Shown: positions 2,632 through 63,122 of the stretch, one piece after another
How the letters are laid out: each line of letters begins with the position of its first letter
How positions within the stretch are numbered: the first letter of the stretch is position 1
Virus record (IMG/VR): IMGVR_UViG_3300035698_004757
Coordinates: 33,673-97,672 of that record
Length of the DNA: 64,000 nucleotides
Direction: 5' to 3' (one strand)
Origin: a virus
Translations under genes and position numbers: made by a program
Notes under the pieces: generated by a model
Databases searched by the model: none
The model's input: the letters and a program-made list of their open reading frames with translations, nothing else
What the model was told of the DNA's origin: nothing

Positions 2632-2646
2632 TTGACGCAGCGTCAA
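2632..2646. repeat. 15-bp palindrome TTGACGCAGCGTCAA (intergenic)
   Basis: Exact copy. Confidence 0.95.
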
Positions 2647-2695
2647 GCCGGGCGACTACAAACTTATTACTCCTTCAATCGTAGGAGACTGACTG

Positions 2696-3526
2696 ATGTC
2701 CGAACCGCAATGGATCGAACAGACCTTACCGTCCGAGGGTGCCTTTTACGGACCCGACGCACTGTTACCCACACCTGAACTGCCTAATGGCGCAGTGAGC
2801 GTGCGGGCGTTTGCGTTCCGTGAGGAAGAGATGCTGGCTACGTCCGGCTCCCGTGGGGCGCAACGTATCCGCACGATCATCACCAACTGCCTTCGGTTGC
2901 CCGAAGGGTTCGACCCGAACATGTTGCTTGTGACCGATCAGATGGCATTGCTCTTGTACCAACGCATGTATAGCTTCGGTGCTGACCTGACGGTGCCGTG
3001 GACCTGCGAGAGTTGCAACACTGCCAACATGGACAAGGTTGACTTGGCTGAGTCGCTGGAAGATCGCAAGCCACGCGACGTGCAGCGCGTCATGCACACG
3101 GCCTACCCTGACCGGTATCCGGACAACACCTCGTTTCCGTTGACCGAGCCGTTTGAACTGAACTTGGGTGGCCGCGTCGTAGGGCTACGCTACCTGCGGG
3201 TCAGTGACGAGATTGCGGTGGAGTCCGCGACCCGGCGAGCGAAGGCGCAGAGTGATTCACCTAGCGCACGTGCCGATCCGAGTTTCCGAGAGCATCGTAT
3301 TCGCAGGATTGTGTCGATCGACGGCAAGGATAATCTGACGTACGAGGACCGTGAAGACTTTGTGGAAAGTTTGTCGTTTCTCGACGGCCGGGTCTACCAG
3401 AACTTTGTCAACAAGGCCGACACGGGCATTGACCAGCGCGTGCTGCTGGCGTGCAAAGCGTGCGGCGCTGACCAGAACGTGACTATCGGGTTCGGGAACG
3501 AGTTTTTTTGGCCAACCGACGTATGA
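2696..3526 (+). CDS. Tail assembly chaperone / baseplate hub assembly protein (T4 gp26-like)
   Basis: Two CxxC pairs (CESC, CKAC), EEEML and terminal FFWP; lies between tube and tape measure. Confidence 0.7.
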   Translation: MSEPQWIEQTLPSEGAFYGPDALLPTPELPNGAVSVRAFAFREEEMLATSGSRGAQRIRTIITNCLRLPEGFDPNMLLVTDQMALLLYQRMYSFGADLTVPWTCESCNTANMDKVDLAESLEDRKPRDVQRVMHTAYPDRYPDNTSFPLTEPFELNLGGRVVGLRYLRVSDEIAVESATRRAKAQSDSPSARADPSFREHRIRRIVSIDGKDNLTYEDREDFVESLSFLDGRVYQNFVNKADTGIDQRVLLACKACGADQNVTIGFGNEFFWPTDV

Positions 3527-3719
3527 TGCGTCGGAATTACGAGCCAACGAGTTTTTCCTGCTGTACCACGGAAAGGGATTCGATCAGGAAGGTATTGGCG
3601 TCATGTCGATGGAGTCTGTGCGATGGCACACACAACGGCTGGCCGACCAGATTAAGCAGGAACATGACGCGCACGAGGAAGCAACACGTAAGGCTCGATC
3701 ACAGCAACGACGGAGGTAG
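3501..3719 (+). CDS. Second chaperone segment (gp51-like) in the +1 frame; probably frameshift-fused or with a cryptic start
   Basis: The +1 frame reads ...ELRANEFFLLYHGKGFDQEGIGVMSMESVRWHTQRLADQIKQE...RRR* and ends just before the tape measure start. A T7 run lies at 3503-3509. Confidence 0.55.
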   Translation, partial: SFFGQPTYDASELRANEFFLLYHGKGFDQEGIGVMSMESVRWHTQRLADQIKQEHDAHEEATRKARSQQRRR

Positions 3720-3721
3720 CC

Positions 3722-6700
3722 TTGAGTTTTTCAGACGATGCAATTGGCTTCTTCCTTCAAATTGAGGACCAACTCTCCCCGGGTCTCGACACCGCTGTCG
3801 GTAACTACGAGTCGTACGTCAAGCAGATTGATAAACTCAACCAGAAGGCGTACGCCAAGCACAACGCGATGTTTGGTGGCGTCGCGCAATTAGTGCATGA
3901 CTTTGCGTCACTCCCGGCCGCTGCCGAGAAGGCGTACAAGAAAACGATACAGGTATTGCGGAAGAAGGTGGCACCTGTCCGGCAGCCCGTTGAGGTGACG
4001 ATGACGTTCAAGGGTGAGCGGGCAATGGGGGCTGTGGTGTCGGAGGCAATCACCAAGTCGCTGCGCCGGTCTACGCTTCGCATGTCTGCGGTACCCCCGT
4101 TACGCAAGAGTCCATTCTTTGACACGTCACAACCGCTGCGCCCGCGATACCGTGAGATGCCGCAACCGCCCGACCTGCGCGGCAAGTTTCAGAATCTACC
4201 TAAGTTCGCAGAGGGTGGTGAGGTGCTGGGGTCGAAGAAGGATATGGACAGCGTCCTTGCGTGGCTCACCCCCGGTGAGATTGTGTTGCCAGTGTCGATC
4301 GCGGCCCAGCTAAAAGGCGTGACTGGCCGGAAGAATCTACCCAAAGACCTCGCCAAGAGTATCGCCAACGTGCAGAACCTTGCGGCAGCGCTGCCCAGCT
4401 TGAAGCAGGCTGCCGATTTGGGACTCGACCCGGCAGCCGCCGAACGCTACGCCAAGGGTATGACGCTGATCGAGACGAACATGACTGCGGTCAGTGAAGC
4501 GGCTGTGAAGATGGGGATGGACAGCAAGAGGAAAGTGCTGCCGATACTGAGCAAGTTGCACACACAGTACAAGTCCACCACCGACCAGCTTGAAGATATG
4601 GCGAAGGTGTCGAGCAAGGACGTACCGAAGGGTGCGAAGAAGGCGGAGGACGCAATAGAGAACCTCGGCGACTCGGCGGAGGACGCGGGCGCTGGGATCA
4701 GTAAAGTCTTCAAGGATATCTTTGGCACTACCCGGTTTATTGCAATGAACAGGGCGCTGCGCGACACAGGCAACTTGGTGTCCAAGGTGTTCTCCAGCGC
4801 GTCCGAGACATTTAGTCGCGGGGAGGGCGACAAGGTGATGAGTTACGTGGAGGCGTTCAATAGCATGAATCAGTCGTTGGGCATCACGCGACCAGAGTTG
4901 CGCAAGTTTAAGAATGATATGTTTGAGGTGGTGGCCGCGACGGGTAGCGCCGGTAATATCACCAATTTCGCGAGTGCTGCTGCTGCGCTGGTGGACGCGG
5001 GCGTCCGTGACAAGGGTCGGCTGTTACGGACACACGCCGACATTGCTTTGATGGCGGATGCGTCTACGGCAGAGTTGGGTGGTCTGGCAGATATGTCTTA
5101 TCGGTTGGGCGATGCCTACAAGTTTGCGGACGACGGGATAGGCAGTGTGTTTGCCAACATCCACCTGTCTTCAACAAAGGCCGCAGTTTCCGCGCAGGAA
5201 CTGTCGGAGACTACGATGGACAGCGTGGCAAATATGCAGGCCGCCTTTGTGGCGTTGGCCGCGAGCGACGACGTTAAGGCGGCGAAGATGCTCACGAACC
5301 TCAATATGTTCCATGCAGCGGTTGCGGATAACTGGGGCGGAGCAAAAGCGATTGTGGAGTTGGCGACCAAGGCGATTGGTCGGGATCAAGAGTCGATGAT
5401 AAAGATGCAGCAGTTGACGGGTATGAGCGCGGACCAAGTGCAGCAAGCGTTTATTGACGGCGACCCGACGCAGATACTTTCGCGGGTTGCGTCGCAGATA
5501 GATCGGATTATGTCGTCGGATCGTTACTCAGACGGCGACAAAGCATTCCAGTTGAAGAACCTCAAAGAAGCGATGGGCGCGTCGGAGATGACGGATGTTG
5601 CGTTCATCAAGCTGGGGACTACTCTCGATTCTGCCACTGCTAAGTACAACGAACTGACGGCAGGCACGATCGCGGCCGCAGACGCCACTGCTTATCTGCA
5701 ACAAGGTGCGCTGAACACCAAGACGCTGTGGGAGCGCGCGTCAAGCATGTTCAACAAGTTTGCGGGGCAGGCTGGTTTGCTGGAAGTCATGGACTTCGTA
5801 AACGAGTTCAACCCGGCGCTGTTGCTGTCGGCGCTGTACCTCGGAAAGAATGTGGCGTGGGGGGCAGCGAAGATGGCTATTGGGTTGGCTAAGACGACGG
5901 GCGTTGGGGGTGTGGTTGTCGATATGTTCAAGAAGATGACGCACGGCGCGCTGAAACTCATCCCGGGTTTAGGGGGTGCAGCAAAGGCGGCGGAGGCCCA
6001 TGCAGTTGCCACGACCGTGCAGTCAACGGCGGTGGCCGGGGGCACGAAAGCGGGCAAAGGGTTCGGCACCATGCTGGGCAACCTCGGCAAAGGTATCGGT
6101 AAGTTCATGTCGGGCATTGGTCGCGGTGCGGGCCAAGCTGTACATGGGTTCCTGTCGGGCGTTGCCGGTGGGCTACGTGCATTGGCCAACCCGTACGTGT
6201 TGGCGGGTGTGGGCGTGGCTGCGCTGATTGGTGTGACGATAGCAGGCACCGCGTGGGGACTAGCACACGCCGCCCGGATCGCAGAGCCGGCGATACAAAC
6301 ATTGGTGGGCGGGGTCGTGGATGTCTTTGGTGTGCTGTCGGTGATGGAGCCGAGTCAGATACTCGCAACCACGTTGGCCATGCTGACACTAGGGCCGTCG
6401 CTGACCACGATTGGCGCAGGGGCAGCGTTGATGGGGCAGGGTATGTTGATTGCGGCACCGGGCATTGCAGTGTTCGCAGGGGCGATGCTGCTGCTGAGTC
6501 GCACAGGTGGTGGGAAAGGTGGAGGGATTGGTGGGGCGATTGCGTCGTTGGCGGATACGTTCACGCTCGATCGCAAGGATGTGTCGCGTGTGGTGGAGGG
6601 TATGGCGTCGGTGCGGGTTGTCGTGACCCGGCTGGCCGTGACTACGCCGATGATGTTGGCGGCCGTGCCGCTGCTGGTTGCATTTGCAGTGGCCGATGTG

Positions 6701-8473
6701 GCGCTGGGGGCCGCACCGGTGCGTGGCGATGGTGTGGTGGCGTTTGTTGACGCAGCGTCAAGCACGTTCGGGAAGATCGACAAGGCCAAGGCAGACAAAG
6801 CCGTGGTCGGCATGGATGTGGCAGGCGGCATGATGGTGCGCATGATGGGGTTGGACGCGATGTCGATGGGCCAGCGCATGTTGGGCCGTGTGGGTCAGGT
6901 GCAGGACATGTCCGATGCGGTGCTGGGGTGGTTTGGCGTCCAGTCCCCGATGCAGCGGATGGCTGATCAGGGCCGGGAGATTGCAGCCACAGCGGTGTCG
7001 TTGCAGGCCAGTTTTGCGCCGTTAGCAAACGACAAGAAGAAGCTGGCAGACTCGGCCGAAGCGATTGACGTGATCGGTAAGTTCATCCACGGCTACGCAG
7101 CCGCCGCCAAGGGTATGCGAGGTGCAGCCCCGGGCATTGGGTCCAAGATGGCAGATGGGATCAGGGGTTGGTTCTACGGCGGTAATTCACCGATGCAGTC
7201 GTTGTACGCGATGGCCCCTGTGATGATCGACACAGCCAAAGGTATTTCAGACAAGTTCGCTGAGGTGGATCAGGCTACGTGGGACAGCATCGAAAGCGCG
7301 TCTAAGCCCCTCAAGTCAGTAAGCGAGATGGTGGGTGGGTTTGCAGCCACGGCGGCTGCGATGCGAGATGCCTCACCCGGTGTGTTGACGTTTGTGGCTG
7401 AGGCGTTCCGGAGTATGTTCTACGGGGGTGACGATTCGCCCGCAGGTCGTTTGCTGGCGTCGTCCGGCGACATTGTGAAGCTGGGTACGAAACTGCCAGA
7501 GGCTTTAGCCCCGTTGGCAACGATGAAGCAGGGCGACATTGACGCGGCCACGCTGGGCCTAAAGCATGTCGGTGATTTGCTGGGGGGCATGCTCCCCGCG
7601 ATGGAGTCGCTGAACAAAGCTGGTGACGTGGCGGACGATTTGACGGATGGGTGGGTGTTCAGTGGTGGTTTGACCAAGGTCACGGAGATGATGCCGGGCT
7701 TGGTGCAGGCTGCACGTGACATACAGGTGGCGCTGGGTCCGTTGGCGGCTATCCCACAAGAGGGCCGCGATCGGGCGATGGCTGCGCTGACGGGCACGAA
7801 GGACTTGACTACGAAGGTGGCAGAGGCGCTGCATGGTGCGGCGGTGCTAAGCATTGCGGTGGGCGAGCATGGGCCAGCTATCCGACGAGCCTCACGCACA
7901 CGCGGGGACGTGATGGTTGAAGTCGCGTCGATCGTGACCGATGTTAAGGCGTTTGCTTCGCAGATCAACGTGCCCATTCCTGTGATCCTGCAACCGGAGG
8001 TGACTACGCAGGCGGTGTCCGATGTGAAGGTGCCCAAACCCGACGAGTTGGTGGATGTGCCCGCCCGCCCAGTTGTGGCGAGTACGGCGATGGCTGCGCT
8101 GAAACTTGACGCACCACCTGCGGGTGTGTTTGCATCGCCGATGGATGTACCAGTCCCGGTAACGCTGCGGCCAGAGGTGGCGATGGCGAACACAAGGATC
8201 AACACCCAAGTTGCCGCAGGCGACCTAGTGACTGATGCAGTGAAACCACTGTTGACCGAGACAGAGGTTAATCGGTTGATAACGTTGCAGATCGAAGCCA
8301 AGGCCACAGACGAAGCGGTCCGCGCCGAGTTGTTGGATATTAAGAGTTTGCTGTCACAGCAGCTTGAGGTGATGCGCCGACCCAGCGCACCCGCAGGCGC
8401 AAAAGTAACAGTCGCGTCCCGACCGGCGAGCGCTTCGGCGGCGCTGAACCATGTGGCCGGAGGGCATAATTGA
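3722..8473 (+). CDS. Tape measure protein
   Basis: 1583 aa, Ala/Gly-rich and helical, with a hydrophobic central region. TTG start preceded by GGAGG. Position follows the chaperone. Confidence 0.88.
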   Translation: MSFSDDAIGFFLQIEDQLSPGLDTAVGNYESYVKQIDKLNQKAYAKHNAMFGGVAQLVHDFASLPAAAEKAYKKTIQVLRKKVAPVRQPVEVTMTFKGERAMGAVVSEAITKSLRRSTLRMSAVPPLRKSPFFDTSQPLRPRYREMPQPPDLRGKFQNLPKFAEGGEVLGSKKDMDSVLAWLTPGEIVLPVSIAAQLKGVTGRKNLPKDLAKSIANVQNLAAALPSLKQAADLGLDPAAAERYAKGMTLIETNMTAVSEAAVKMGMDSKRKVLPILSKLHTQYKSTTDQLEDMAKVSSKDVPKGAKKAEDAIENLGDSAEDAGAGISKVFKDIFGTTRFIAMNRALRDTGNLVSKVFSSASETFSRGEGDKVMSYVEAFNSMNQSLGITRPELRKFKNDMFEVVAATGSAGNITNFASAAAALVDAGVRDKGRLLRTHADIALMADASTAELGGLADMSYRLGDAYKFADDGIGSVFANIHLSSTKAAVSAQELSETTMDSVANMQAAFVALAASDDVKAAKMLTNLNMFHAAVADNWGGAKAIVELATKAIGRDQESMIKMQQLTGMSADQVQQAFIDGDPTQILSRVASQIDRIMSSDRYSDGDKAFQLKNLKEAMGASEMTDVAFIKLGTTLDSATAKYNELTAGTIAAADATAYLQQGALNTKTLWERASSMFNKFAGQAGLLEVMDFVNEFNPALLLSALYLGKNVAWGAAKMAIGLAKTTGVGGVVVDMFKKMTHGALKLIPGLGGAAKAAEAHAVATTVQSTAVAGGTKAGKGFGTMLGNLGKGIGKFMSGIGRGAGQAVHGFLSGVAGGLRALANPYVLAGVGVAALIGVTIAGTAWGLAHAARIAEPAIQTLVGGVVDVFGVLSVMEPSQILATTLAMLTLGPSLTTIGAGAALMGQGMLIAAPGIAVFAGAMLLLSRTGGGKGGGIGGAIASLADTFTLDRKDVSRVVEGMASVRVVVTRLAVTTPMMLAAVPLLVAFAVADVALGAAPVRGDGVVAFVDAASSTFGKIDKAKADKAVVGMDVAGGMMVRMMGLDAMSMGQRMLGRVGQVQDMSDAVLGWFGVQSPMQRMADQGREIAATAVSLQASFAPLANDKKKLADSAEAIDVIGKFIHGYAAAAKGMRGAAPGIGSKMADGIRGWFYGGNSPMQSLYAMAPVMIDTAKGISDKFAEVDQATWDSIESASKPLKSVSEMVGGFAATAAAMRDASPGVLTFVAEAFRSMFYGGDDSPAGRLLASSGDIVKLGTKLPEALAPLATMKQGDIDAATLGLKHVGDLLGGMLPAMESLNKAGDVADDLTDGWVFSGGLTKVTEMMPGLVQAARDIQVALGPLAAIPQEGRDRAMAALTGTKDLTTKVAEALHGAAVLSIAVGEHGPAIRRASRTRGDVMVEVASIVTDVKAFASQINVPIPVILQPEVTTQAVSDVKVPKPDELVDVPARPVVASTAMAALKLDAPPAGVFASPMDVPVPVTLRPEVAMANTRINTQVAAGDLVTDAVKPLLTETEVNRLITLQIEAKATDEAVRAELLDIKSLLSQQLEVMRRPSAPAGAKVTVASRPASASAALNHVAGGHN
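6747..6761. repeat. 15-bp palindrome inside the tape measure gene
   Basis: Exact copy; encodes VDAASS. Confidence 0.95.
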
Positions 8474-10807: not shown

Positions 10808-11890
10808 ATGACTGAACTGACTCACAGCCCGCCGGGGATGCCGCACGCACAGCCATACGACGGTGTGTTTCGTGGCATTGTCGAAAGCGTGAACGACCCC
10901 GAGAAGCGAGGGCGCTATCGTGTCCGCGTTCGGGTGGCGCATGAAGATACAACCCCGGCGGACCATTTGCCGTGGGCAGAAATCTGCGGGTACGGCGGGC
11001 GAGGGTTCGGAGACGTGGCACATTATGAGATTGGCGACCGTGTGTGGGTGCAGTTCGAGGGTGGCATGACGCATTTGCCCGTTATCTTGGGTGGGTGGGT
11101 CAGCAACCGACATGGAATCCATGACCTGAACCCCGAGCAAACACTGGACTACGAAACTGACCGGCGGCGATGGCACCGGGTGGACCGCGCCAGCAATCTG
11201 ATCGAGATGTCGGAGCGAGGGGATGAGTTGCACATCCGGCTCAAGAGTGGGAACTCGCAGCTTGTCATATCGCAGGTGGACGATTCGATCCGTGTGGACT
11301 GTGCAGGCAGCGTGAGGATTAACGCGGAGCAGGTGAATGTGACCGCCAAGCAGGCGTTCACGGTGGCTGAGGACATTGTGACGACCGCACACGGCACAGA
11401 CGCAGAGGGTGTGGCTGACGGCCAGAATAACATGTACGCGAGTGACGAAGCCCGTGTGGTGGCGGGACGGCGTGTTGACATTGGCCAGTACGAGGATGAC
11501 ACCCCCGGGAAGACCCCGCACCAGAGTGATGAAGTGGTTGTGCAGCCGAGGCACGCGCAGGTGGGCGTGAAGGAAACGGGGAATCGCAAGCGCACGTTCA
11601 CGGTGAACATCGAGGGTCACACGAAAGTGGACCTGACCTCAAACGGGGATGTCCACATTGGCGCGCCCCGCACACATATACAGGGCTACGAAAAGCTGGA
11701 CCTTGATGGTAATTGGATCACGGTGACGGCAGGCAAGAAGCTGACGCTTAAAGCCCCTGAGATTGTGATCGAAGCTGCGCGGAAGTTGTCGATGTTGGCC
11801 CCGTACATCCGCAGGGTCACCGATTACTTGTGGCACTGGACCTACTTCACACGGTCGTACACACATAGCGGGAAGGGCACACGTATCTGA
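10808..11890 (+). CDS. Baseplate central spike (gp5/gpV OB-fold plus beta-helix)
   Basis: GIVESVNDPEKRGRYRVRV, LPWA and GDRVWVQFEGG...PVILG. Confidence 0.88.
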   Translation: MTELTHSPPGMPHAQPYDGVFRGIVESVNDPEKRGRYRVRVRVAHEDTTPADHLPWAEICGYGGRGFGDVAHYEIGDRVWVQFEGGMTHLPVILGGWVSNRHGIHDLNPEQTLDYETDRRRWHRVDRASNLIEMSERGDELHIRLKSGNSQLVISQVDDSIRVDCAGSVRINAEQVNVTAKQAFTVAEDIVTTAHGTDAEGVADGQNNMYASDEARVVAGRRVDIGQYEDDTPGKTPHQSDEVVVQPRHAQVGVKETGNRKRTFTVNIEGHTKVDLTSNGDVHIGAPRTHIQGYEKLDLDGNWITVTAGKKLTLKAPEIVIEAARKLSMLAPYIRRVTDYLWHWTYFTRSYTHSGKGTRI

Positions 11891-12888
11891 TGGCGGACAA
11901 AGTCATACAAGGTGGTGTGGTGCTGGCCCCGGCGATGGGGGCGGGGATCGTGTCCGGAGAGGCTGCGTATGCTGACACAGCAGGTGTTAGTGCGCATGTG
12001 CAGGTCGGGTACAACGCGATGTTCATTACCAGAGCCGGTGATGCGTTCAAGATTGTGCTTGGTAACTATGTTGCCGCGCACCATTACACGGGGATCGCAA
12101 CCCGGGTGGAGAGCGAGGACCGAACGCACGGGGCAATGAGACTACGCATTCAGATGGGCGGGAACATTGTGCCGTCGCACGGGCAAGTTGGGTCAGTGAC
12201 CGGCGAGTCACAACACAGCAGCAAGACGCAGGGTGGTGTGACGATCGTGATGGAGAAGTTGCGGCAGATCAACGCGAGGACGGCTGAGATGGACAGCGCT
12301 CTATCCCTGTTGCTCCGAGACCCGACGACGCAAGGTGCCACAGCCGCCGAAGACTTGAACAGTTTGGCTGCGGCAATGACACGGCCGGTGGGCGCACTGT
12401 CAGACTACGCAGACCTCGGGCCGCTGCGGCCGCTGGACACGGTGACCCAGTCGATCGAACTTACGTCGCCCGTATCAAGTGTGGTTTTCCGATCGTTGGA
12501 CCCAAAGATACAGGCCCACCTTGACCGGCAGCAGGCGACTCGGGTTCTTAACGCCGTGGTGGGTGAGTTTCGCACACTGCTGCGAGGCAAGCCCAGTTGG
12601 CCGGTGGGCAAAGTGGCGTTGCAATATCTTGATGACTTGAAGCGGATTGGCTTGACGAATAAACGGATCAGCGATGCACGCACGCTGTCCACGACGGTGC
12701 AGGCCCAAAGTCCCGACGAGTATGCAAACGGCCCGTACGCGGCGTTTGTGGTGTTGTCTGAGGGCGTGACGTTGAACGGGTATGTACCGACTAATCTGAC
12801 CAGTGATGTGCAAGCAGTGATGGATGCTGCGATGACGTGTGAGCGTGTGGTGGATGAGTGGCGATTGAAAGTAACCGAACGGATGTAA
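11890..12888 (+). CDS. Hypothetical (virion-associated?) protein
   Basis: Translationally coupled to the spike gene; no recognised motif. Confidence 0.6.
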   Translation: MADKVIQGGVVLAPAMGAGIVSGEAAYADTAGVSAHVQVGYNAMFITRAGDAFKIVLGNYVAAHHYTGIATRVESEDRTHGAMRLRIQMGGNIVPSHGQVGSVTGESQHSSKTQGGVTIVMEKLRQINARTAEMDSALSLLLRDPTTQGATAAEDLNSLAAAMTRPVGALSDYADLGPLRPLDTVTQSIELTSPVSSVVFRSLDPKIQAHLDRQQATRVLNAVVGEFRTLLRGKPSWPVGKVALQYLDDLKRIGLTNKRISDARTLSTTVQAQSPDEYANGPYAAFVVLSEGVTLNGYVPTNLTSDVQAVMDAAMTCERVVDEWRLKVTERM

Positions 12889-12891: not shown

Positions 12892-12906
12892 TTGACGCTG
12901 CGTCAA
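12892..12906. repeat. 15-bp palindrome (intergenic)
   Basis: Exact copy. Confidence 0.95.
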
Positions 12907-12932: not shown

Positions 12933-13349
12933 ATGCCGATAGCAGGACTACAACCAAAACAGAAATTGCGGGGCTTAACATACCCTGTGACGCGGTACCC
13001 GGGCGGGTACTGGGGTTCGAGCGGACCCGTAGATTGTGCGTGGGGCGACCTGTTGTCGGCGATTCTGACTCCCGTGGGGAGCCGCATCATGCAGCGTGAG
13101 TACGGGAGTGGTTTGCACCGCGTGTTGTTCGACCCGAACACCGTGGCGCAGGGAGCCGTCGTGCAAGAGATCATCTTTACCGCTGCGGAGCAATGGTGCC
13201 CGCACGTGGTGGTACATGAGGTGGGTGTGCAGCAGGAAGGCCGCACGATTCAGGTGGCTGTGTCGTTCAGTCTCGCGGACGACAACACAGAGCATACGCG
13301 CAGTTTCTCGACCGTGAACGCAGCAGCGCTGGGGGCACAACACGTATGA
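12933..13349 (+). CDS. Baseplate wedge / sheath initiator (gp25/GPW-like)
   Basis: ILTPVGSRIMQREYGSGLHRVLFDP motif. Confidence 0.88.
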   Translation: MPIAGLQPKQKLRGLTYPVTRYPGGYWGSSGPVDCAWGDLLSAILTPVGSRIMQREYGSGLHRVLFDPNTVAQGAVVQEIIFTAAEQWCPHVVVHEVGVQQEGRTIQVAVSFSLADDNTEHTRSFSTVNAAALGAQHV

Positions 13350-15835: not shown

Positions 15836-15851
15836 TTAGGAGACTACCCCG

Positions 15852-16262
15852 ATGGCCAATTCCCTTACGGAACACGGCGAAGAACTGATGTTGTTTGGTG
15901 ACGGCTCAAGCGATGGCTCACTTGCACGCCTTGCGGCGAAAGTGAAGTTGTACCTAAACACGTCCACCCCGGACAAAGATGGTACCGGCTTCAACGAAGT
16001 CGCAAACGGCAACGGCTATGTCACGGACGGCAAAGCAATCACCGTCGCATCATGGACGTTCTCGGTTGTTGGTGGCTTCGGTCGCATCACGCTGGATGAC
16101 CAGACGTGGACCGCATCCGGCAGCACGATCGACAACGTCCAAGGTGCGTTTATCACCGACTCCGCCGACGCGGCGATGGCATGGTGGGAGCGATCGCTGG
16201 CGACGACCCTGTCACCCGGTGACTCCTTGACCCTTGACGACCTGTACGTTAGCGCTGGCTAA
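15852..16262 (+). CDS. Small tail/fibre-associated structural protein
   Basis: EVANGNGY...W..., TLSPGDSLTL; strong RBS; sits in the structural operon. Confidence 0.6.
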   Translation: MANSLTEHGEELMLFGDGSSDGSLARLAAKVKLYLNTSTPDKDGTGFNEVANGNGYVTDGKAITVASWTFSVVGGFGRITLDDQTWTASGSTIDNVQGAFITDSADAAMAWWERSLATTLSPGDSLTLDDLYVSAG

Positions 16263-16283
16263 TCCCCATAGAAAGGGGACGCT

Positions 16284-19109: not shown

Positions 19110-19118
19110 GGCAGCAGC

Positions 19119-47310: not shown

Positions 47311-47338
47311 TTGACGCTGCGTCAAATTGACGTATGAT
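47311..47338 (+). promoter_or_regulatory. Promoter of the ParB-like gene whose -35 box is the palindrome TTGACGCTGCGTCAA
   Basis: TTGACG-N16-TATGAT; palindrome at 47311-47325. Confidence 0.75.
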
Positions 47339-48526: not shown

Positions 48527-48563
48527 CAGGGTGGTGGGTGTTCGCATCCACCACCCTGTTTTT
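48527..48563 (+). terminator. Intrinsic terminator (UUCG loop) after parB
   Basis: CAGGGTGGTGGGTG-TTCG-CATCCACCACCCTG plus T5. Confidence 0.8.
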
Positions 48564-48582
48564 CTTATTTGAGGGCTACGTC

Positions 48583-49512: not shown

Positions 49513-49514
49513 TT

Positions 49515-51610: not shown

Positions 51611-51639
51611 TTGACGTTGCGTCAACTATCCGGTACACT
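51611..51639 (+). promoter_or_regulatory. Promoter with palindrome variant TTGACGTTGCGTCAA as -35
   Basis: TTGACG-N17-TACACT. Confidence 0.7.
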
Positions 51640-51673: not shown

Positions 51674-52687
51674 ATGGGACAACATTTTGACAGGCTGTGC
51701 AGCATCGTCGAATCTCGGTTTCCGAAGATGTTAGCGGCGGTGCAGGAGGCTGCGCTGTTTGAGTTCGACCAACCCCCGCATATGTTCCTACCAACAGCCG
51801 TTGACTACGCGACAGCGTCGCGTGATTTCTTCTTACCGTTTCGGGCGTGCGCGTTTGAAGACCCTGCGGGTGTGGTTGTTGTTTGGGACGCGGTGGAAGA
51901 TGCCGTGGGTCCGGACCACAAACGGTTCTCGTTGGTGTTGTGCCCAGCCATCGCGCCCGAGGGTACGTTTCGTGCGACTGCCGGGGATCAGGATTACGAT
52001 CGTTTGCAAGCTGCGATCGTGGCGCAGATTGGTTTGACGGCGGCACAGCGGTTGTCGTTGTTTGGGTTTGGTGAGGTCGATCGTTTGGTGGCGGACCCGA
52101 ATGGTAAGACCATGCACGTTCAATACACCGCGAGGCACGGTGGCATTTACAAAGGGGCAGCGCTGGTGGCCGATCAGCCGATGCACGTTCAAGATGAAGC
52201 AACACAATCGCTGGGGCGATCGCTTGCGATACACACTAAAACTGCGACGGAAGAAGCCGCGTGGGTCAACCGCCCCGATCACTTTGTGGTTGAGACGACG
52301 CCAGTCAAGGTGAAGTTGCGCAGCGCTAAGGTGCAGAAGACACGGGCGCGTCGTTCGTTTGAGCGGCCCACGTTCACAGTGTTGAAGCCGAGCGAAGCGC
52401 GGAGCCGTATGGGCTTACCAGCGCCGATGACTACTGGTGATAAGAAGGCCGCCCATGAGCGCCGCGCACACTTGCGGTATTTGGGGTCTCCGAAGTTCAA
52501 GACGAAGCAAGGCCAATGGATTCACATTAAGTCCACGTGGATTGGTCCGCGCGAGGCCGTCGTGGGCAAGCGACGTTACAAGGTACACACCGATCATGCG
52601 TCCGTTGCGATGGACATCGACAAGGGTGACGCGCTTCCGAAGGCGCTGACACGTGCAGAACTGCCCGCACTTATTGACACAATGTGA
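51674..52687 (+). CDS. Hypothetical protein with C-terminal HxRRxHxR motif
   Basis: AHERRAHLR...WIHIKSTWIG; has its own promoter and terminator. Confidence 0.7.
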   Translation: MGQHFDRLCSIVESRFPKMLAAVQEAALFEFDQPPHMFLPTAVDYATASRDFFLPFRACAFEDPAGVVVVWDAVEDAVGPDHKRFSLVLCPAIAPEGTFRATAGDQDYDRLQAAIVAQIGLTAAQRLSLFGFGEVDRLVADPNGKTMHVQYTARHGGIYKGAALVADQPMHVQDEATQSLGRSLAIHTKTATEEAAWVNRPDHFVVETTPVKVKLRSAKVQKTRARRSFERPTFTVLKPSEARSRMGLPAPMTTGDKKAAHERRAHLRYLGSPKFKTKQGQWIHIKSTWIGPREAVVGKRRYKVHTDHASVAMDIDKGDALPKALTRAELPALIDTM

Positions 52688-52778: not shown

Positions 52779-53810
52779 ATGAAAATTGCATTAACTGCGG
52801 ACTGGCAATTCGCCCCGCATTACAAACTATCGAAGCCCACGCCGGGTGGCTTACCGTCGCGGTTCGTGGACCAACTTGTGTGTTTTCGCTGGGTGACGCA
52901 AACAGCACGCGACTTGGGTTGCGAGCGACTTGTATTGGCCGGGGACGTGTTCGACAACCGCACGGCGATCGACATCCCGGTGTTGGATCAGGTGCGTGAC
53001 GCGGTTGACTACGCGGCACAGAAGTTGGAAGTGGATATCATCCCGGGCAACCATGACAGTTATGCGAGGTCGTCCACGTTCACCAGTGTGCGGGCGTTGC
53101 GCAGTGCGCGTGTTCACGTTCATGTGACGCCGCAGGAGGTAGTGTTTGACGGGCGTCGGTTTGTGTTCTTGCCGTGGGTTGACGACCCGAACGAAGTAGC
53201 TGCGATGGTGGACAAGGTGCAGCCGAAGAAGGTTGTTGGGTCGGTGTTGATTGCACATGCACTGATTTCCGGTGTAGTGACCGCAGGCAACAAGGGGACG
53301 CCGTTGAAGGCGCTGCGGCCGGACCGGTTCGACTGCGTTTGGTTGGGTGATGTTCACGAGCCGACGTTGGTCAAGCCGGGCGTGCAATACATTGGCTCAC
53401 CGATGCAGATCGACTACCGCGACGCGGGTGGCATGCGCGGGTTTTACGTGTTCGACACGAATAAGATGACAGCGAAGTATGTCGAGAACGACGTGAGTCC
53501 CCGTTTCCACGTAGTCAAGGAGGCAACACCCGGATCGCGCAGGTCGATTCGGAAAGCTGACTTTGTGCGTGTGAAGATTGCTGACGCAGGTGCAGCGAAG
53601 GAGTGGGTGGACGCACTTGGCGGCGCAGCGGACCACGTCGAGTGTGCAAGCGTGGACGTGGGTGATGAGCCGCCGCGAATGTCGGTGAAGACTGGCGATG
53701 ATGATGCCGTGCTGTTACGTCGGTACGTCAATATGCAGGGTGTGGATACTGACGCAGAAGATGCGTTGGTTAAATTGGGCGTTGCAATGTTGAGCGAGGT
53801 GACATCTTGA
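52779..53810 (+). CDS. SbcD/Mre11-like metallophosphoesterase nuclease
   Basis: TADWQ, AGDVFD, PGNHD, LGDVH and YIGSP.Q. Confidence 0.92.
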   Translation: MKIALTADWQFAPHYKLSKPTPGGLPSRFVDQLVCFRWVTQTARDLGCERLVLAGDVFDNRTAIDIPVLDQVRDAVDYAAQKLEVDIIPGNHDSYARSSTFTSVRALRSARVHVHVTPQEVVFDGRRFVFLPWVDDPNEVAAMVDKVQPKKVVGSVLIAHALISGVVTAGNKGTPLKALRPDRFDCVWLGDVHEPTLVKPGVQYIGSPMQIDYRDAGGMRGFYVFDTNKMTAKYVENDVSPRFHVVKEATPGSRRSIRKADFVRVKIADAGAAKEWVDALGGAADHVECASVDVGDEPPRMSVKTGDDDAVLLRRYVNMQGVDTDAEDALVKLGVAMLSEVTS

Positions 53811-55771
53811 GTTCTTACATCATTGGGTTGACTACATACGAGAACTTCGGACCCTTCGAGAAAGTGGCGTTCGATTTCTCACTGCCCGGGTTGACGGTGA
53901 TCGAGGGTGAGATAAACAAAGTGGGTTGCGACTCGAACGGTGCGGGCAAGAGCCAGATATTCGATGGCCTGTCGTGGTGCCTGACCGGCACGTGCATGCG
54001 AGCCGACATGGGTGCAGGCGATGTGGTGCGCAATGGCAGCGAAGGCGGATGCTGCGTGCAGACTACGTTGCATGGTACACATGAGGTGGTCGTGACTCGC
54101 ACCCGGGGGCATGCAGTCCACGGGCACAAGGTGATGCTGTCAGTGGACGGCCGCGATGTGACGGCCGGAACAAATCCGCAGACTGACGTGATGATCGCGG
54201 ACTTGTTGGGTCTGGACTTCAATGCCTTTTGTAATTCCGTTGCGTTCGGAGCGCGCATGGATGTGGCGAGTTTTTTCTCCGTGCCGGACGCGGACCGCAA
54301 GAAGTTGTTGGAGGGGATGCTTGGGCTGAGCCGGTTCTCCGACGCGGAGAAGATTGCCAAGGCACGGTACCGCGAGGTGGGCGACGCGCTCAATGTGTTG
54401 GAGAGCCGCTGCGAGACGTTGACAGCGTTGCGAGACGAGCGAGTCCGCGTGTTGGCGGAGTTGCAGCAGGGTGCCGACGATGATGATGATGACGTGTCTG
54501 AGTTGCGAGACCTTGAGGCCCGCGCGATGGCTAGGCGGTACGCGCAGTTGCAGGTCAAACAGCGAGCTTACATAGGTGAGGTGGAGGACCGGCAGCAGAT
54601 GGTGATTGGGGCAGTCAGCAAGCAAGTGGAGGCGCACCAAGCGGCGGCCGCTGTGTGGGCAGTCGAGCATCAGGATGCCGAGGAAGACTACCATACCTCT
54701 ATGCGGGCGAAGGCAGTTGCCGAGTCTTGTTACTCTGCTTCGCAACAGGAGGTGACGCAGTTGGCTGAATTGTCTGGGAAGACATGCCCGTCATGCCGCC
54801 AGCCAGTGAAGGGGAAGCCCGCTGCCGACGCAAAGAGGGCCGCAGCCAAGCGCGCGAAAGAGGCCGGGTTTAAGGCTGATGCTGCCACAGTGGACTTGCA
54901 GGCAGCCAAGGTGAGATTGGACGCCGTGATGGAGCAAAGACCTCAGCGACCCCGTGACGTGCATGGGCGGATGGCTGGGGTGGTCGTGGATGCCGCCCGC
55001 CAGACGTTGGAGCGGTATGAGAGCCAGCAGAGGTCGTGGGAGGCACAGAGACCGGAGATGGGGAGGGACGCAGCACGACGCAGCCAGATAGATCGCATGG
55101 AGGGAGACGTGGGGGAGGCAAACGAGCAGTTGCATGCCCTGACTGGTGAGATTGAGGTGCAGCAGGCCACGGCCGCCCGTGTGGAGTTTTGGGTGCAGGG
55201 GTTTGGCAAACAGGGGTTGGTCAGTTACCTGATGGAAGCTGCGATGCCCGAAGTCAACGCCAGTGCAACGTCATACGCAGTCCGGTTGCTGGGCGAGGGT
55301 GCGATGGTGAAGCTGTCTGCCACGACTACGTTGAAGAGTCGGGCGGCTCAACGAGAGAAGATCAGTATCACGGGGTACATCCCGGGGTGCTGCACGTCGT
55401 ACGCGCAGGCGAGTAAGGGCCAGAAGCGACGGATGAACTTGGCGTTGATCCTTGCGTTCCGAGACCTTGTTGCACGCCGGGTGGCGGCCCCGTTTGGCCA
55501 GATGCTCATCGACGAGATATTCGACGGTATGGATCGCACAGGTGCCGAGCAGGTGGCAGAGTTGGCACAGGAACTATCGCAGGCGTACCCGGTGTGTTTG
55601 ATCGCACACGATCCGACGTTAAAGGGTGTGGCCGACCGCGTGGTTAAGGTGGTCCATGACGGCCAAGCCGCGACGTTGGAAGGACCGGGAACTAAGTGGC
55701 CGGACGCAACCAAGTCCGCGAAGCCGCAGAGACGAACACCCACGAAGAAGAAGACGGCAGCGGCGCGTTGA
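53807..55771 (+). CDS. SbcC/Rad50-like ATPase
   Basis: SNGAGKS, zinc hook CPSCRQ, SKGQ signature, IDEIFDGMD and IAH. Confidence 0.92.
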   Translation: MSSYIIGLTTYENFGPFEKVAFDFSLPGLTVIEGEINKVGCDSNGAGKSQIFDGLSWCLTGTCMRADMGAGDVVRNGSEGGCCVQTTLHGTHEVVVTRTRGHAVHGHKVMLSVDGRDVTAGTNPQTDVMIADLLGLDFNAFCNSVAFGARMDVASFFSVPDADRKKLLEGMLGLSRFSDAEKIAKARYREVGDALNVLESRCETLTALRDERVRVLAELQQGADDDDDDVSELRDLEARAMARRYAQLQVKQRAYIGEVEDRQQMVIGAVSKQVEAHQAAAAVWAVEHQDAEEDYHTSMRAKAVAESCYSASQQEVTQLAELSGKTCPSCRQPVKGKPAADAKRAAAKRAKEAGFKADAATVDLQAAKVRLDAVMEQRPQRPRDVHGRMAGVVVDAARQTLERYESQQRSWEAQRPEMGRDAARRSQIDRMEGDVGEANEQLHALTGEIEVQQATAARVEFWVQGFGKQGLVSYLMEAAMPEVNASATSYAVRLLGEGAMVKLSATTTLKSRAAQREKISITGYIPGCCTSYAQASKGQKRRMNLALILAFRDLVARRVAAPFGQMLIDEIFDGMDRTGAEQVAELAQELSQAYPVCLIAHDPTLKGVADRVVKVVHDGQAATLEGPGTKWPDATKSAKPQRRTPTKKKTAAAR

Positions 55772-55782
55772 CGCTGCGTCAA
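55768..55782. repeat. 15-bp palindrome on the SbcC stop
   Basis: Exact copy. Confidence 0.95.
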
Positions 55783-55863: not shown

Positions 55864-56421
55864 ATGCGTGACAGTAGAGCAAAGGGGAACCGCAATGAGA
55901 ATGCGGTGTGCAGATTGCTGACCGCGTGGTTGGTACCCGAACTGGCCGACGCGCCAGTGGATGACCTGCCGTTTCGTAGACGGCAAACGGTGATCCGGGC
56001 TGGGTTGCCCGGATGGGAAGGACAGCGCGACACGATGTACGATGCACGTGTTGTAAAGTGCTTCCCGTTTTGTGTTGAGGCAAAGTGCGAAGAGGGCTGG
56101 GTACTGGATGGGCTGTTGACCAGCGATAACGGCAAATGGAAGCCGTGGCGATGGTGGCAGCAGGCGGTGGATCAGGCTGATAAGTTTGAACTTGAACCGT
56201 TGTTGATTTTTACCCGAAGTCGCTACGAGCAATATGTGTTAATGCGAAAGGCCGTAGCACAATGTCTAAAAGTAGAACCAAAAAACGGACAAGTAGCGGA
56301 CGTAGCGGGTCCGGGCTTAACGGAACCGTTGACTGTCTTGCTAATGGCGGACTTGATGACTGTACCCCCGCCCCGATTGAAAAGACTACGCGACGTTACT
56401 CGCTCCGCAATCTCATCTTGA
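55864..56421 (+). CDS. PD-(D/E)xK nuclease, Holliday-junction resolvase-like
   Basis: SRAKG...E, FCVEAK, WWQQA and PLLIFTR. Confidence 0.75.
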   Translation: MRDSRAKGNRNENAVCRLLTAWLVPELADAPVDDLPFRRRQTVIRAGLPGWEGQRDTMYDARVVKCFPFCVEAKCEEGWVLDGLLTSDNGKWKPWRWWQQAVDQADKFELEPLLIFTRSRYEQYVLMRKAVAQCLKVEPKNGQVADVAGPGLTEPLTVLLMADLMTVPPPRLKRLRDVTRSAISS

Positions 56422-56720
56422 GGCTGCAACAGAGCGGTGGTATGGACGAGGCAACAGCAGAGCAGGTGGCTGGCGAGATTTTCGCTGACCTCCGCGATGC
56501 GCTGTGCCAAGGCAAGCCGATTAACTTGACCAACATCCTGACCATCACGCCGTACATGCGGAAGGCTCGCAAGTACCGGCACCCCACACGTAACCGTGAT
56601 ATGGTAGCCCCGTCTGCACCTGACTTGCGCATTACGATATCCCCCGCGTTCAAGGGGGCGTTTCGTGACCGTGACGTGGTGACGAAGTTGATTGCCGCGA
56701 AGCATGCCAAGGCTGGGTGA
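56262..56720 (+). CDS. HU/IHF-like DNA-binding protein (start uncertain)
   Basis: DALCQGKPINLTNILTI...RKARKYRHP...APSAPDLRITISPAFK. Confidence 0.7.
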   Translation: MSKSRTKKRTSSGRSGSGLNGTVDCLANGGLDDCTPAPIEKTTRRYSLRNLILRLQQSGGMDEATAEQVAGEIFADLRDALCQGKPINLTNILTITPYMRKARKYRHPTRNRDMVAPSAPDLRITISPAFKGAFRDRDVVTKLIAAKHAKAG

Positions 56721-56730: not shown

Positions 56731-57471
56731 ATGTCGTTGACGGCTGACGATCGTGTGTACGTCGATCTGCTCTTCCAGTTCGGCCCGGACCGGCTGATAG
56801 TGGAGGGTATGTCGCTTGTGGACCGCGATGCGTTCCTGAAACGGGACGACGTGCGTGATGCGATCAGGCAATTGGCCCGGGACTACCAGACACAGGAAGG
56901 TATGGAGGCGCGCGTTAAGTATGCAACGAAGCGTCGTTTGTTTGGTCTGGCTACACGTGCGGTTGGCGTGCTTGAAGACGCGATGAACGGAGTCAGGTAC
57001 GCACGTGATACACATGGCAATGTCATACGCGACAGTGGCGGCGAGCCGGTGTTGTTAGCCGCAGAGGTGTCCGACGCGCGACAACTACGTGCAGCCGAGA
57101 AGGTGTTGGATTTGCTGGGCGTGGGTCCGGACAGTGCTTTAGTTAAAGTCGAGATTAACACGGCTGTGTTGCTACAACAGGAGCGGACCCGGCTGGCAAT
57201 TGAGCAGGATAAGACGCTGGGCAGCGAAGAAGAGAAAGGTATTGCTAGAGAACGTGTCCGCGTGGCTATGGAGAAGTTGGTGGCGACGAAGCCCGCGTTG
57301 GTGGCGAGGGCGATGCAAGAGGCCGGTATGACACGACAGGTGTCGAGCAAAGTTATTGACGCTGCGTCAAACCCCAAGGCGAGGACCAAGGCTACACGCC
57401 GGAAGAAATCGACGAAGAAGAAGACTGCGAAGCGGAAGCGATCGACGAAGAAGAAAGGCACGGGCAAATGA
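56731..57471 (+). CDS. Putative terminase small subunit
   Basis: Helical, with A...VL and RAAEKVLD motifs; directly upstream of and coupled to TerL. Confidence 0.55.
   Translation: MSLTADDRVYVDLLFQFGPDRLIVEGMSLVDRDAFLKRDDVRDAIRQLARDYQTQEGMEARVKYATKRRLFGLATRAVGVLEDAMNGVRYARDTHGNVIRDSGGEPVLLAAEVSDARQLRAAEKVLDLLGVGPDSALVKVEINTAVLLQQERTRLAIEQDKTLGSEEEKGIARERVRVAMEKLVATKPALVARAMQEAGMTRQVSSKVIDAASNPKARTKATRRKKSTKKKTAKRKRSTKKKGTGK
57356..57370. repeat. 15-bp palindrome inside the putative TerS gene
   Basis: Exact copy; encodes IDAASN. Confidence 0.95.
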
Positions 57472-59650: not shown

Positions 59651-61609
59651 ATGGCACTTCCAAATGGTAGCGAGTTACTTGACGCGCGAATCAATCCGCG
59701 TACGTCGCCGACGTTTATGCGTCTTTTGCGCCTGTTCAACATGGTGGATCACCCGGTTGACGACGGGGGTGCTGGTGACGGTGAGGGCGGAGATGCTGCG
59801 TCGTTTTCACAGTGGTGGGACAGACAGTTCGAGATGTCGGGCAAACGCACCGAGCGGTACCGCATCTTCAACGACATGAATCAATACCCGCTGGTGGCGG
59901 GCATCCTTGACACCTACGCAGAAGAGTCAACACAGATTGACCACGATCGCGGCCGGGCTGTGTGGATCGAGTCCGACAACGCTGACATGGTGGCGCGGGG
60001 TGATGAGTGCCTGCGTAACATCGCGGCCGAGGATTGCATCAGCACGCTTACGCGCAGCATGTGCATGAACGGGGACGACTTCCGCAGGCTGGTGTACCGC
60101 ACGGGTGCAGGTGTGTTGGCGTGGCGACCGTCCCCGGCAGGGAAGACACATCGCCGGGAAGACAAGCTGTCGCGGCTGGCCGGGTTCAGCGCGGATGGGG
60201 AGGACTACATGAATCGCGGGGTGGCGGACGCGAATAAGAAGGGCCGTGCAATCAGCTTTCCGTGGGACTACATCCATTTCCGATTACTGGGGTCAAAAGA
60301 AGAGAGCGGGTACGGTACGAGTATCCTTGAGCCGATGTTTCGACCGTGGCGTCAGTTGTTACTGGCTGAGGACGCAACGCTGTTGTACCGCATCCGCCGT
60401 GCGCCGGATCGCAACATGGTGTTGGTAGACATGGGTGACATGGACCACACGGAGTCACGCAAGTGGATTGAGAGTTGGCGCAAGAAGTACCGCAAGCACG
60501 AGTTCGTGGACCCGGCGTCGAGCGATTACCGTAAGCAGTACAACCCGTGGACATCATGGGAAGATGTGTGGATTCCAGTCAAGCAGGGCCGGGATACGCG
60601 GGTGGAGACATTGTCGGGTGCCGGTGAGGTGGGCGGATTGCACGACCTGAATGATTTTCGCCGCGCTTTGTTTGGTGCGGCTCGCATACCCCCCGCATAC
60701 ATGGGCTTTGAGGGTGAAATCAACGCGAAGGCTACGCTGCTGCAACAGGACATCCGGTTTGCCCGCACGATCAAACGCATACGCCGCGCACAGATTTATG
60801 GGCTGCGCCAGTTGCTTGACATCCACTACGCACTGCTGGCCACGACGCCCGAAGATGTAGCGAAGTATGACACCGCGAAGCCGGGCAATGACTACGCAGT
60901 GAGCATGTCTCCGATCAGCTATCTTGACGAGGTGGAGCGCCTTGAGTTGACGCGATTGCGTTGGGAGATTGTGGACGCCATGAATCGGGCAGGTACGGAT
61001 ATGAAACTCGACCCGCGCGTGTGGACCGTGTACATCCTCACGTCGGTGGCGCACTTGTCCGAGGACGTGGTGATGAAACTGGTGTCGAAGGTACCGGACG
61101 ATCCGGAGAGCGCCATGGGCGGCGGCATGGGTGGTGGTTTTGAGGCACTTACCCCTGAGAAGCGACGTGAGGTTTTGGAGAACTTGAAACTCGCGCCGAA
61201 TGGTGACACCGTGGGGCATTACCCGTTGGCGGAGAGTGAGAAGCAGATGATTGATACGATCATTGCTACGAATGGGAAGTTGCGCGAGACAATCACGGAG
61301 TTGGCCGCGTACGCACGCGAGGACATGGGTGAGAGCCGACCGCTGGTGGAGCGTGCGGCGCAGCAAGTCGATCCGGCGTTGATACTTCCGGTATTCAAGG
61401 GCAAGATTGTGACGGACAGTGTGAAGGAAGACCCGCAGGTGGAAGAGTTGAGAGCCGACATGGTGGACTACGACTCATTCGACCCCGCGACCGGTAAGTA
61501 TAGGGCGCGCGCGTCGGACCAGTTGGTTGAGCGCGCTGAAGCAGTGCGGTTGGCCCGGGACGAAAAAGTTGACGCTGCGTCAAAATCGAATGATGGGAGA
61601 GCGGCATGA
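59651..61609 (+). CDS. Portal protein (T4 gp20-like)
   Basis: LLLAEDATLLYRIRRAPDR, EDVWIP, VETLSG and QDIRFARTIKR. Confidence 0.9.
   Translation: MALPNGSELLDARINPRTSPTFMRLLRLFNMVDHPVDDGGAGDGEGGDAASFSQWWDRQFEMSGKRTERYRIFNDMNQYPLVAGILDTYAEESTQIDHDRGRAVWIESDNADMVARGDECLRNIAAEDCISTLTRSMCMNGDDFRRLVYRTGAGVLAWRPSPAGKTHRREDKLSRLAGFSADGEDYMNRGVADANKKGRAISFPWDYIHFRLLGSKEESGYGTSILEPMFRPWRQLLLAEDATLLYRIRRAPDRNMVLVDMGDMDHTESRKWIESWRKKYRKHEFVDPASSDYRKQYNPWTSWEDVWIPVKQGRDTRVETLSGAGEVGGLHDLNDFRRALFGAARIPPAYMGFEGEINAKATLLQQDIRFARTIKRIRRAQIYGLRQLLDIHYALLATTPEDVAKYDTAKPGNDYAVSMSPISYLDEVERLELTRLRWEIVDAMNRAGTDMKLDPRVWTVYILTSVAHLSEDVVMKLVSKVPDDPESAMGGGMGGGFEALTPEKRREVLENLKLAPNGDTVGHYPLAESEKQMIDTIIATNGKLRETITELAAYAREDMGESRPLVERAAQQVDPALILPVFKGKIVTDSVKEDPQVEELRADMVDYDSFDPATGKYRARASDQLVERAEAVRLARDEKVDAASKSNDGRAA
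61569..61583. repeat. 15-bp palindrome inside the portal 3' end
   Basis: Exact copy; encodes VDAASK. Confidence 0.95.
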
Positions 61610-62966: not shown

Positions 62967-62990
62967 CGAGGGGACTACGACAGGTATAAT
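62963..62990 (+). promoter_or_regulatory. Sigma70-type promoter
   Basis: TTGACG-N16-TATAAT. Confidence 0.7.
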
Positions 62991-62996
62991 GCTCGC

Positions 62997-63071
62997 AGTG
63001 GTTTCGGGTGTCCAGCCCACCACTTTGCCTAAGACAACTCGCATGGGTTCACCACCCATGCGAGTTTTTTT
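62997..63071 (+). ncRNA. Candidate small RNA (hairpin plus terminator, no ORF)
   Basis: Lies between the 62963 promoter and a perfect 13-bp stem (63036-63066) with T-run. Confidence 0.4.
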
Positions 63072-63093
63072 ACGCCTAATGCGAAAACTGCTA

Positions 63094-63122
63094 TTGACGC
63101 GGCGTCAATGCGCCGATACACT
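63094..63122 (+). promoter_or_regulatory. Promoter with palindrome variant TTGACGCGGCGTCAA as -35
   Basis: TTGACG-N17-TACACT. Confidence 0.7.

Follow-up and report, generated by a model that had tools for sequence, protein, structure and literature searches.

We identified a 15-bp palindrome (pattern TTGACGCWGCGTCAA) that recurs throughout a 64,000-nt stretch of viral DNA (the window, bases 33673-97672 of the 97,672-bp viral record G000). As judged from sequence patterns, this palindrome is probably read by the orphan ParB-family protein encoded at positions 47394-48503 of the window. More tentatively, we propose that a whole clade of virulent-looking phages may coat its replicating genomes through an orphan ParB clamp bound to cytidine triphosphate (CTP) and an even, phage-specific lattice of sites, amounting to a virus-made 'chromatin' in which site and recognition helix co-evolve quickly and sister phages are mutually incompatible.

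At up to one mismatch, the window contains 17 copies of the pattern (15 exact and 2 with one mismatch), all of them where the original prediction, made from the window alone, had placed them. Dinucleotide-preserving shuffles of the window yield 0.01 expected copies. Loosening the threshold to 3 mismatches adds a single, unrelated match in the window, and the site family is thus sharply bounded. The whole G000 record, which is judged to be ~70% complete, holds 27 copies at up to one mismatch and none at two. Fourteen positions each carry about 2 bits of information and the flanks about zero, meaning that conservation is confined to the 15-mer. In an exact-pattern scan of viral contigs, the matches listed were only single chance copies per contig. 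The copies in the window are the following.

2632-2646: exact site, intergenic, upstream of a baseplate-hub-like gene (2696-3526)
6747-6761: exact site, deep in the gene for a 1583-aa protein (3722-8473), in the frame D-A-A-S
12892-12906: exact site, intergenic, 4 nt past the stop of 11890-12888 and before a baseplate-wedge gene (12933-13349)
16846-16860: exact site, within the gene for a 941-aa protein (16284-19109)
23947-23961: exact site, upstream of gene 23990-24670; its TGA is the stop of the open reading frame (ORF) 22889-23950
27094-27108: exact site, in the last 45 nt of gene 26370-27137
32106-32120: exact site, at the 5' edge of a helicase gene (start 32094 or 32106, end 33770)
37485-37499: exact site, on the TGA stop of a primase gene (36448-37488), with a promoter-like site (TTGACA-16-TATACT) 44 bp downstream at 37529
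38709-38723: exact site, part of a second copy of the 37485 region; a promoter-like site at 38753 follows 44 bp downstream
45659-45673: exact site, on the TGA stop of a gp32-like gene (44439-45662), followed by a GC-rich hairpin and a T-run
47311-47325: exact site that contributes the -35 (TTGACG) of a promoter-like site, TTGACG-16-TATGAT, 83 nt ahead of the parB start; candidate for autoregulation
48622-48636: exact site, 119 nt past the parB stop and either ahead of an N6_N4 methyltransferase gene or at its 5' end
51611-51625: site with 1 mismatch, the -35 of TTGACG-17-TACACT, upstream of gene 51674-52687
55768-55782: exact site, on the TGA stop of a Rad50/SbcC-like gene (53807-55771), 46 bp upstream of TTGACA-17-TATACT at 55814
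57356-57370: exact site, at the 3' end of gene 56731-57471, itself just upstream of the large terminase gene
61569-61583: exact site, in the last 40 nt of a T4-like portal gene (59651-61609)
63094-63108: site with G at its centre, the -35 of TTGACG-17-TACACT

Across the G000 record, neighbouring copies lie on average 3.7 kb apart (range 1224-7101 bp, coefficient of variation 0.47). This spacing is more even than expected from uniform placement (P ~6e-5) or from a gene-boundary null (P ~1e-4). Eleven of the 27 copies are intergenic, six sit on a stop codon (supplied by the motif's internal TGA) and four fall within 150 nt of the end of a gene. Of the five copies that lie deep in genes, four are in those encoding proteins of 2640, 1583 and 941 aa. 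One of these long genes, in the head or structural region upstream of the window (G000 positions 14431-22653), is a single ORF of ~2,640-2,740 aa with two deep copies. Intragenic copies are read as D-A-A-S (8) or L-T-Q-R-Q (2).

Within the window, the contexts described by the original prediction were about right. Three copies do supply a -35 hexamer whose -10 box lies 16-17 bp downstream; three or four (four in the prediction) overlap a TGA stop; and of copies inside genes (six reported in ORFs), we count two far within long genes and three within 150 nt of a gene's end. Strong promoter-like sites (TTGACA/TATACT) are found 44-46 bp downstream of the copies at 37485, 38709 and 55768. Two of these copies belong to a direct duplication (37475-37560 and 38699-38785) around the gene for a 293-aa methyltransferase, in which the flanks are near-identical for at least 60 nt downstream, including TTGACA-16-TATACT.

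Reads that hold G000 DNA come from salt-lake metagenomes. The record encodes ~75 genes, all on one strand, and its DNA polymerase shares 30-33% identity with the polymerases of SPO1-like phages of Bacillus, with no nearer cultured relative. The replication module had no megablast match among cultured phages, and peptide scans with single proteins (ParB, polymerase) recovered no relatives. Alignment-based scans (ParB, PolA) led to a clade of syntenic uncultured phages, and a metagenome scan with a ParB alignment (A1) added one further relative and otherwise returned mostly chromosomal ParBs. The comparison covers nine genomes, namely G000 and eight syntenic uncultured relatives (among them G001 and G004-G008), and shorter contigs of 21-23 kb (L132, L155 and L159). 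The relatives form an SPO1-like group of 140-156 kb that includes complete or near-complete genomes of 143-156 kb (two of the searched genomes are complete), and one has direct terminal repeats. This clade of SPO1-like phages is new, and its members are apparently virulent.

Every relative carries its own dispersed, odd-length variant of the palindrome, in 5-58 copies. The original prediction had named relatives that keep parB and lack the motif as evidence against it; the syntenic relatives keep parB and carry these variants instead. Reversed-pattern controls for the relatives' motifs gave 0 matches. The variants are as follows.

G001: TTRACAYWRTGTYAA, 24-45 copies in 95 kb
G004: GTGACACGCTGTCAC, 17 identical copies in 156 kb
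G005: yTGACACGATGTCAr, 55-58 copies in 150 kb
G006: kTrACACWGTGTyAm, 24 copies in 143 kb
G007: TTGACACAAYGTCAA, 31 copies in 124 kb
G008: TGGACGCTGGGTCCA, 5 identical copies in 74 kb
L132: CCAACAAWTTGTTGG, 3 copies in 21 kb
L155: GTGACAACCTGTCAC, 3 exact copies and 1 variant in 23 kb
L159: TAAACGNCGTTTA, 7 copies in 23 kb

Placement follows the same pattern across the clade. Spacing is more even than under both nulls (uniform and gene-boundary) in 6/6 genomes tested (P <5e-5 to 0.018). Intergenic and stop-codon sites make up 61% of the 202 examined, compared with ~13% non-coding DNA. Sites deep within genes cluster in long ones, many encoding more than 900 aa (for example, five in the gene for one 3604-aa protein).

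Individual genomes show further peculiarities. In G004 (L195-L202), the 17 copies do not differ over their 15 bp, and flanking CCA...TGG extends them to a 21-bp palindrome whose central CGC is asymmetric yet invariant. G007 (L215-L221) has a second, unrelated palindrome, CGCACATGTGCG, in ~14 copies over 124 kb beside its TTGAC-type sites. The sense strand of G006 (L207-L214) has T as the central base in 21/24 copies, although whole-site orientation is 12:12; no other genome is so biased.

Several observations bear on how the element is read. Where the central three to five bases are asymmetric, orientation relative to the sense strand is random in 7/7 genomes (binomial P 0.13-1.0). The pairing potential of the sites is no better on the sense strand, and the hairpin formed by site RNA is weak (-4.2 kcal/mol). 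A -10 box is found 16-18 bp downstream of 4/27 G000 copies (2% background), of 0-6 sites per relative and of 0/16 sites in G004. The element therefore acts as duplex DNA and is read by a two-fold symmetric binder. It comprises two 5-bp TTGAC half-sites that are 10 bp apart and thus on the same side of the helix, the classic geometry of a helix-turn-helix (HTH) dimer.

The candidate reader is encoded within the window.

47394-48503 (+ strand): orphan parB, 369 aa; Lys-rich N-terminal tail, ParB N-domain, HTH (recognition helix HQTVRRCLTL) and helical C-terminal domain

Pfam detects both domains (ParB_N, 9.4e-8; HTH_ParB, 2.6e-8), and a profile search matches Caulobacter crescentus ParB (4e-29), as well as Spo0J and Noc, with a weaker match to KorB (5e-10). 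An AlphaFold2 model has confidence (pLDDT) scores of 85-92 over most of the N and HTH domains, and the best Foldseek matches are ParB, Noc (template modelling score 0.67 on target) and KorB. The original identification of this gene as a ParB-HTH protein is upheld at each of these levels, and the predicted structure is that of a bona fide ParB/Noc/KorB fold. The FNPR, GERR and AENSExxR motifs of the G000 protein are kept across relatives (GHRR or GFRR in two). The C-terminal region (residues ~286-359) is conserved and predicted to be helical (pLDDT ~80-90), with no match to Pfam PF23552. The nearest homologues are P0002 (66% identity, identical recognition helix) and P0003 (on a 148-kb contig). 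ParB proteins of the clade begin with long Lys/Ala/Pro-rich tails (47394-47540 in G000; repeated KKVAKKKTAR in G008) that resemble histone tails and probably bind DNA non-specifically.

Conservation and position link parB to the sites. The gene is one of only 9 protein families detected in 9/9 genomes and always lies between RecA-like and FEN genes. A site occurs within ~130 nt of parB in 7/7 genomes, including the site-poor G004 (17 in 156 kb) and G008 (5 in 74 kb). This adjacent site is upstream of the gene in five genomes and just downstream in G000, G004 and G008. Apart from parB, one gene family alone has a comparably conserved adjoining site.

The recognition helix varies together with the motif. 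All eight phages with an x-K-[VI]-R-R helix carry TGACA half-sites, and G000 (HQTVRR) and G007 (ERTVRR), whose helices read T-V-R-R, have a G at position 6 of the site. Divergent helices are paired with divergent motifs in G008 (KKVQRS), L132 (AERIRRY), L155 (ARMVRRC) and L159 (MKVRKS). The best example is the pair G004 and G008, which are sisters with 100/100 support in polymerase, terminase, portal and ParB trees. Their ParBs share 59% identity (HTH helix 2 identical, recognition helix 5/11 residues), and the motifs of the two phages are different. Positions at which the helix varies line up with what we take to be the ParB/Noc specificity residues R173, T179 and A184 of C. crescentus ParB, an alignment that serves as a lead and not as a test.

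The co-occurrence and covariation of parB with the motif that the original prediction invoked thus mostly favour ParB: the gene is kept, a site flanks it and the helix diverges with the motif, and from this we infer that ParB binds the sites. No other clade-wide HTH candidate was found among the nine genomes. G005 alone has MerR_1, HTH_3 is limited to G005 and G006, and we rejected MerR and Xre regulators as clade-wide readers because they are confined to these genomes. A regular-expression search for the MerR gene gave no match.

Several points weigh against ParB as the reader. All links between ParB and the sites are correlations, and both the helix and the motif drift apart along the phylogeny. 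The K-to-T change shared by G000 and G007 may have happened once, given that the two group together in the ParB tree. Copy number is very uneven even though ParB is always present, with 5 copies per 74 kb in G008 and few, degenerate copies in G002 and L139. Strict conservation extends to the central bases, which are often asymmetric (CGC in G004, CGA in G005); a simple symmetric dimer would not need this. The family search missed the HTH of the G004 ParB, which makes its negatives for other HTH families inconclusive. HU-like genes are present in 9/9 genomes. An unseen reader is also possible, because small G000 ORFs mostly lack a Pfam or PHROG match and the record is incomplete. Finally, the core of the G000 site, TGACGCWGCGTCA, matches the canonical box of the actinomycete regulator BldD at 11/13 positions, including the central GCTGC.

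We consider it unlikely, though plausible, that another phage protein reads the sites, either an unannotated small protein (perhaps encoded in the missing 30% of the G000 genome) or, by analogy with SPO1 TF1, the following.

56262-56720 (+ strand): gene for an HU/TF1-like DNA-binding protein, a clade core gene and the main rival candidate reader

SPO1-type phages encode TF1, a site-preferring HU homologue, and the palindrome contains flexible TG/CA steps that would suit such a protein. The site adjoining parB would then merely reflect that sites mark most transcription-unit boundaries. However, HU/IHF-type proteins read DNA mostly by shape, and we know of no HU-type protein that demands 14 invariant bases as these sites do. 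An HU-type reader also fits poorly with half-sites laid out for an HTH dimer, with a conserved adjoining site in just one gene family besides parB and with a ParB recognition helix that tracks the motif. Moreover, the HU arm has no intercalating proline in G005, the genome with the most sites.

A host BldD-type factor, through which the phage would couple its genes to host physiology or titrate the regulator, is an improbable reader. The BldD box of actinomycetes is TNAC(N)5GTNA, with TCACGCTGCGTGA as the canonical crystallised box (PMC4151990). By sequence it is the closest known motif and has the same 13-bp core geometry as the G000 site; G000 and most relatives fit TNAC-N5-GTNA. A match to a host regulator's site, which the original prediction had listed as evidence against itself, is therefore partly present. 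However, the consensus is violated by the variants of G008 (TGGAC...GTCCA), L132 (CAACAA...) and L159. Bases at the positions free in the BldD box do not vary within a phage but change from one phage to the next, the sisters G004 and G008 included, which argues for a reader that co-evolves with each phage rather than one supplied by the host. BldD is an Xre-type regulator with a degenerate box at ~170 promoters, whereas the phage sites tile the genome evenly and are forced into long genes, unlike a regulon. We rate this reading low on the strength of the phage-specific free positions, the three variants that break the consensus and the spacing.

Host markers add little. Looking up the 293-aa methyltransferase in a protein atlas yielded no hint of the host. 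A Cys-motif pattern found no WhiB-like ORF in the nine genomes, and there are no tRNA genes in G001 or G005, the two genomes scanned; both are weak actinophage markers at best and uninformative about the host.

That the element acts in RNA (as an intercistronic hairpin for processing or stability) or as the -35 of a promoter class is highly improbable: every copy is transcribed, since all genes lie on one strand, many copies are at gene ends, TTGAC is a -35 core and -10 boxes exceed background in G000, but the weak hairpin, the random orientation, the equal pairing on both strands, the paucity of -10 boxes in G000 and its relatives and the copies deep within genes led us to reject both a sigma-70 promoter element and an RNA hairpin or terminator.

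If ParB is the reader, then a KorB/Noc-like array of loading and operator sites would fit the observations best. Clamps of ParB and CTP are familiar from the segregation of chromosomes and plasmids and, lately, from long-range silencing by KorB. In the phage, ParB dimers would dock on each 15-bp site. Where the site is also a -35 box, its position suggests that docking would repress transcription, namely at the parB promoter (47311, autoregulation), at 51611 and at 63094. At every site, ParB carrying CTP would form a closed clamp and slide away, as its GxRR and ENxxR motifs and the precedents of ParB, Noc and KorB suggest. Sites are spaced every 1.2-7 kb, so that no part of the genome is beyond the sliding distances measured for chromosomal ParB and KorB. 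Selection for whole-genome coverage would make sense of the even spacing, including the sites forced into very long genes. Such a coat may serve to organise or compact replicating phage DNA, to time transcription or to shield the genome.

The original prediction had also raised a centromere that segregates a plasmid-like prophage, and our results do not support this. No ParA-type Walker A motif (KGGxGK[ST]) occurs in six-frame ORFs of the nine genomes, two of them complete, and the ParB-family protein has no ParA-binding motif ([LFI]G[KR]G[LFI]). The sites are thus not a ParA-driven centromere. The terminal repeats of one relative and the SPO1-like backbone likewise lend no support to a plasmid-like prophage.

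The closest known system is KorB and its operator OB, followed by Noc and its binding sites (NBS). KorB of the IncP-1 plasmid RK2 is a ParB-family CTPase/HTH protein, and the OB core is TTTAGCSGCTAAA, 13 bp with a central base pair (PMC11790492, PMC13768133). It loads as a CTP clamp and slides, reaching promoters up to 1.5 kb away (PMC11790492). In both systems an odd-length palindrome is scattered over the replicon at, upstream of and remote from promoters, as are the 27 copies in G000. The KorB-like picture drawn by the original prediction, of one palindromic site at promoters, far from them and inside genes, holds in this respect. KorB also regulates its own gene, for which the site at the parB promoter is a candidate counterpart. 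The phage sites 44-46 bp upstream of promoter-like sites recall the promoter-proximal class of KorB operators.

The two systems differ in several ways. KorB has a ParA partner (IncC) and a clamp-locking partner, KorA; neither was found in the phage clade, where MerR and Xre proteins occur in only one or two genomes and nothing resembling KorA was identified. On RK2, about a dozen OB sites are spread over 60 kb with no report of even spacing, whereas the phages have 17-58 sites on 140-156 kb that are evenly spaced and forced into long genes. By sequence, the phage ParB is closer to chromosomal ParB/Noc than to KorB, and its replicon is an apparently virulent phage rather than a plasmid. The rapid divergence of site and helix sets the phage system apart from both KorB/OB and Noc/NBS.

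Bacillus subtilis Noc (7NFU, 7OL9, 6Y93) is likewise an orphan ParB paralogue without ParA that has many dispersed palindromes and owes its specificity to a few changes in HTH recognition. Noc differs in having a membrane-targeting N-terminal helix and a role in division-site selection, whereas the phage protein has a Lys-rich N-terminal tail. Among other differences, NBS is an even-length 14-bp palindrome, whereas the phage sites are 15 bp with a central base.

Inverted-repeat sites of the phage N15 are dispersed in different regions of its genome. The N15 protein SopB (with IR1-4; PMC7205306) and P1 ParB (with parS) are phage-encoded ParB-family proteins, as here. However, P1 and N15 are temperate, live as plasmid prophages and have a ParA/SopA partner and 1-4 sites, in contrast to the SPO1-like phages described here, with tens of sites and no ParA. 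The matS site, which we take to be GTGACRNYGTCAC, shares the half-site, but we rejected it because its half-sites are 3 bp apart instead of 5.

ParB-like proteins are also known as partners of phage DNA-modifying enzymes (bioRxiv 10.1101/2025.08.14.668559) and as fusions to methyltransferases (PMC12704722). These are orphan proteins whose fold is that of a ParB-CTPase, as in G000, where a DNA methyltransferase gene directly follows parB. They have no DNA-binding domain, in contrast to the full HTH of the G000 ParB, and the methyltransferase neighbour is absent from the relatives, in which FEN directly follows parB. In G000 alone, the region between parB and FEN (48538-50627 in the window) holds this N6_N4 DNA methyltransferase gene and one for a RecD/PIF1-like helicase.

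Orphan ParB genes are common in phages and are listed as uncharacterised in function by a 2025 survey (PMC12704722). Our full-text literature search found no paper describing such a ParB-type palindrome array in a phage. If the proposed coating is correct, then it would give orphan phage ParB proteins a concrete, testable role. It would also mean that selection can position protein-binding sites by distance, even within essential genes, and the clade would offer natural orthogonal ParB/site pairs for DNA-labelling tools.

The window as a whole has genes for tail and baseplate proteins, the large terminase and the T4-like portal. Further genes encode helicases, a DnaB-like helicase, primase, PolA, a gp32-like protein, a RecA-like protein, a FEN nuclease and a RecD-like helicase. 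Other genes encode ParB, the N6_N4 methyltransferase, Mre11/Rad50-like proteins and the HU-like protein.

The relatives carry additional genes. G005 (L187-L194, complete, 150 kb) encodes an IS605 OrfB/Cas12f-like TnpB, an ADP-ribosylglycohydrolase and a Cpn10 co-chaperonin, as well as a Dam-type methyltransferase, a WYL-domain protein and, at 63744-63932, the MerR-family regulator. In G001, ARAGORN calls a transfer-messenger RNA gene (L127, 13256-13628) with the tag peptide ANPFAQQSRVAA.

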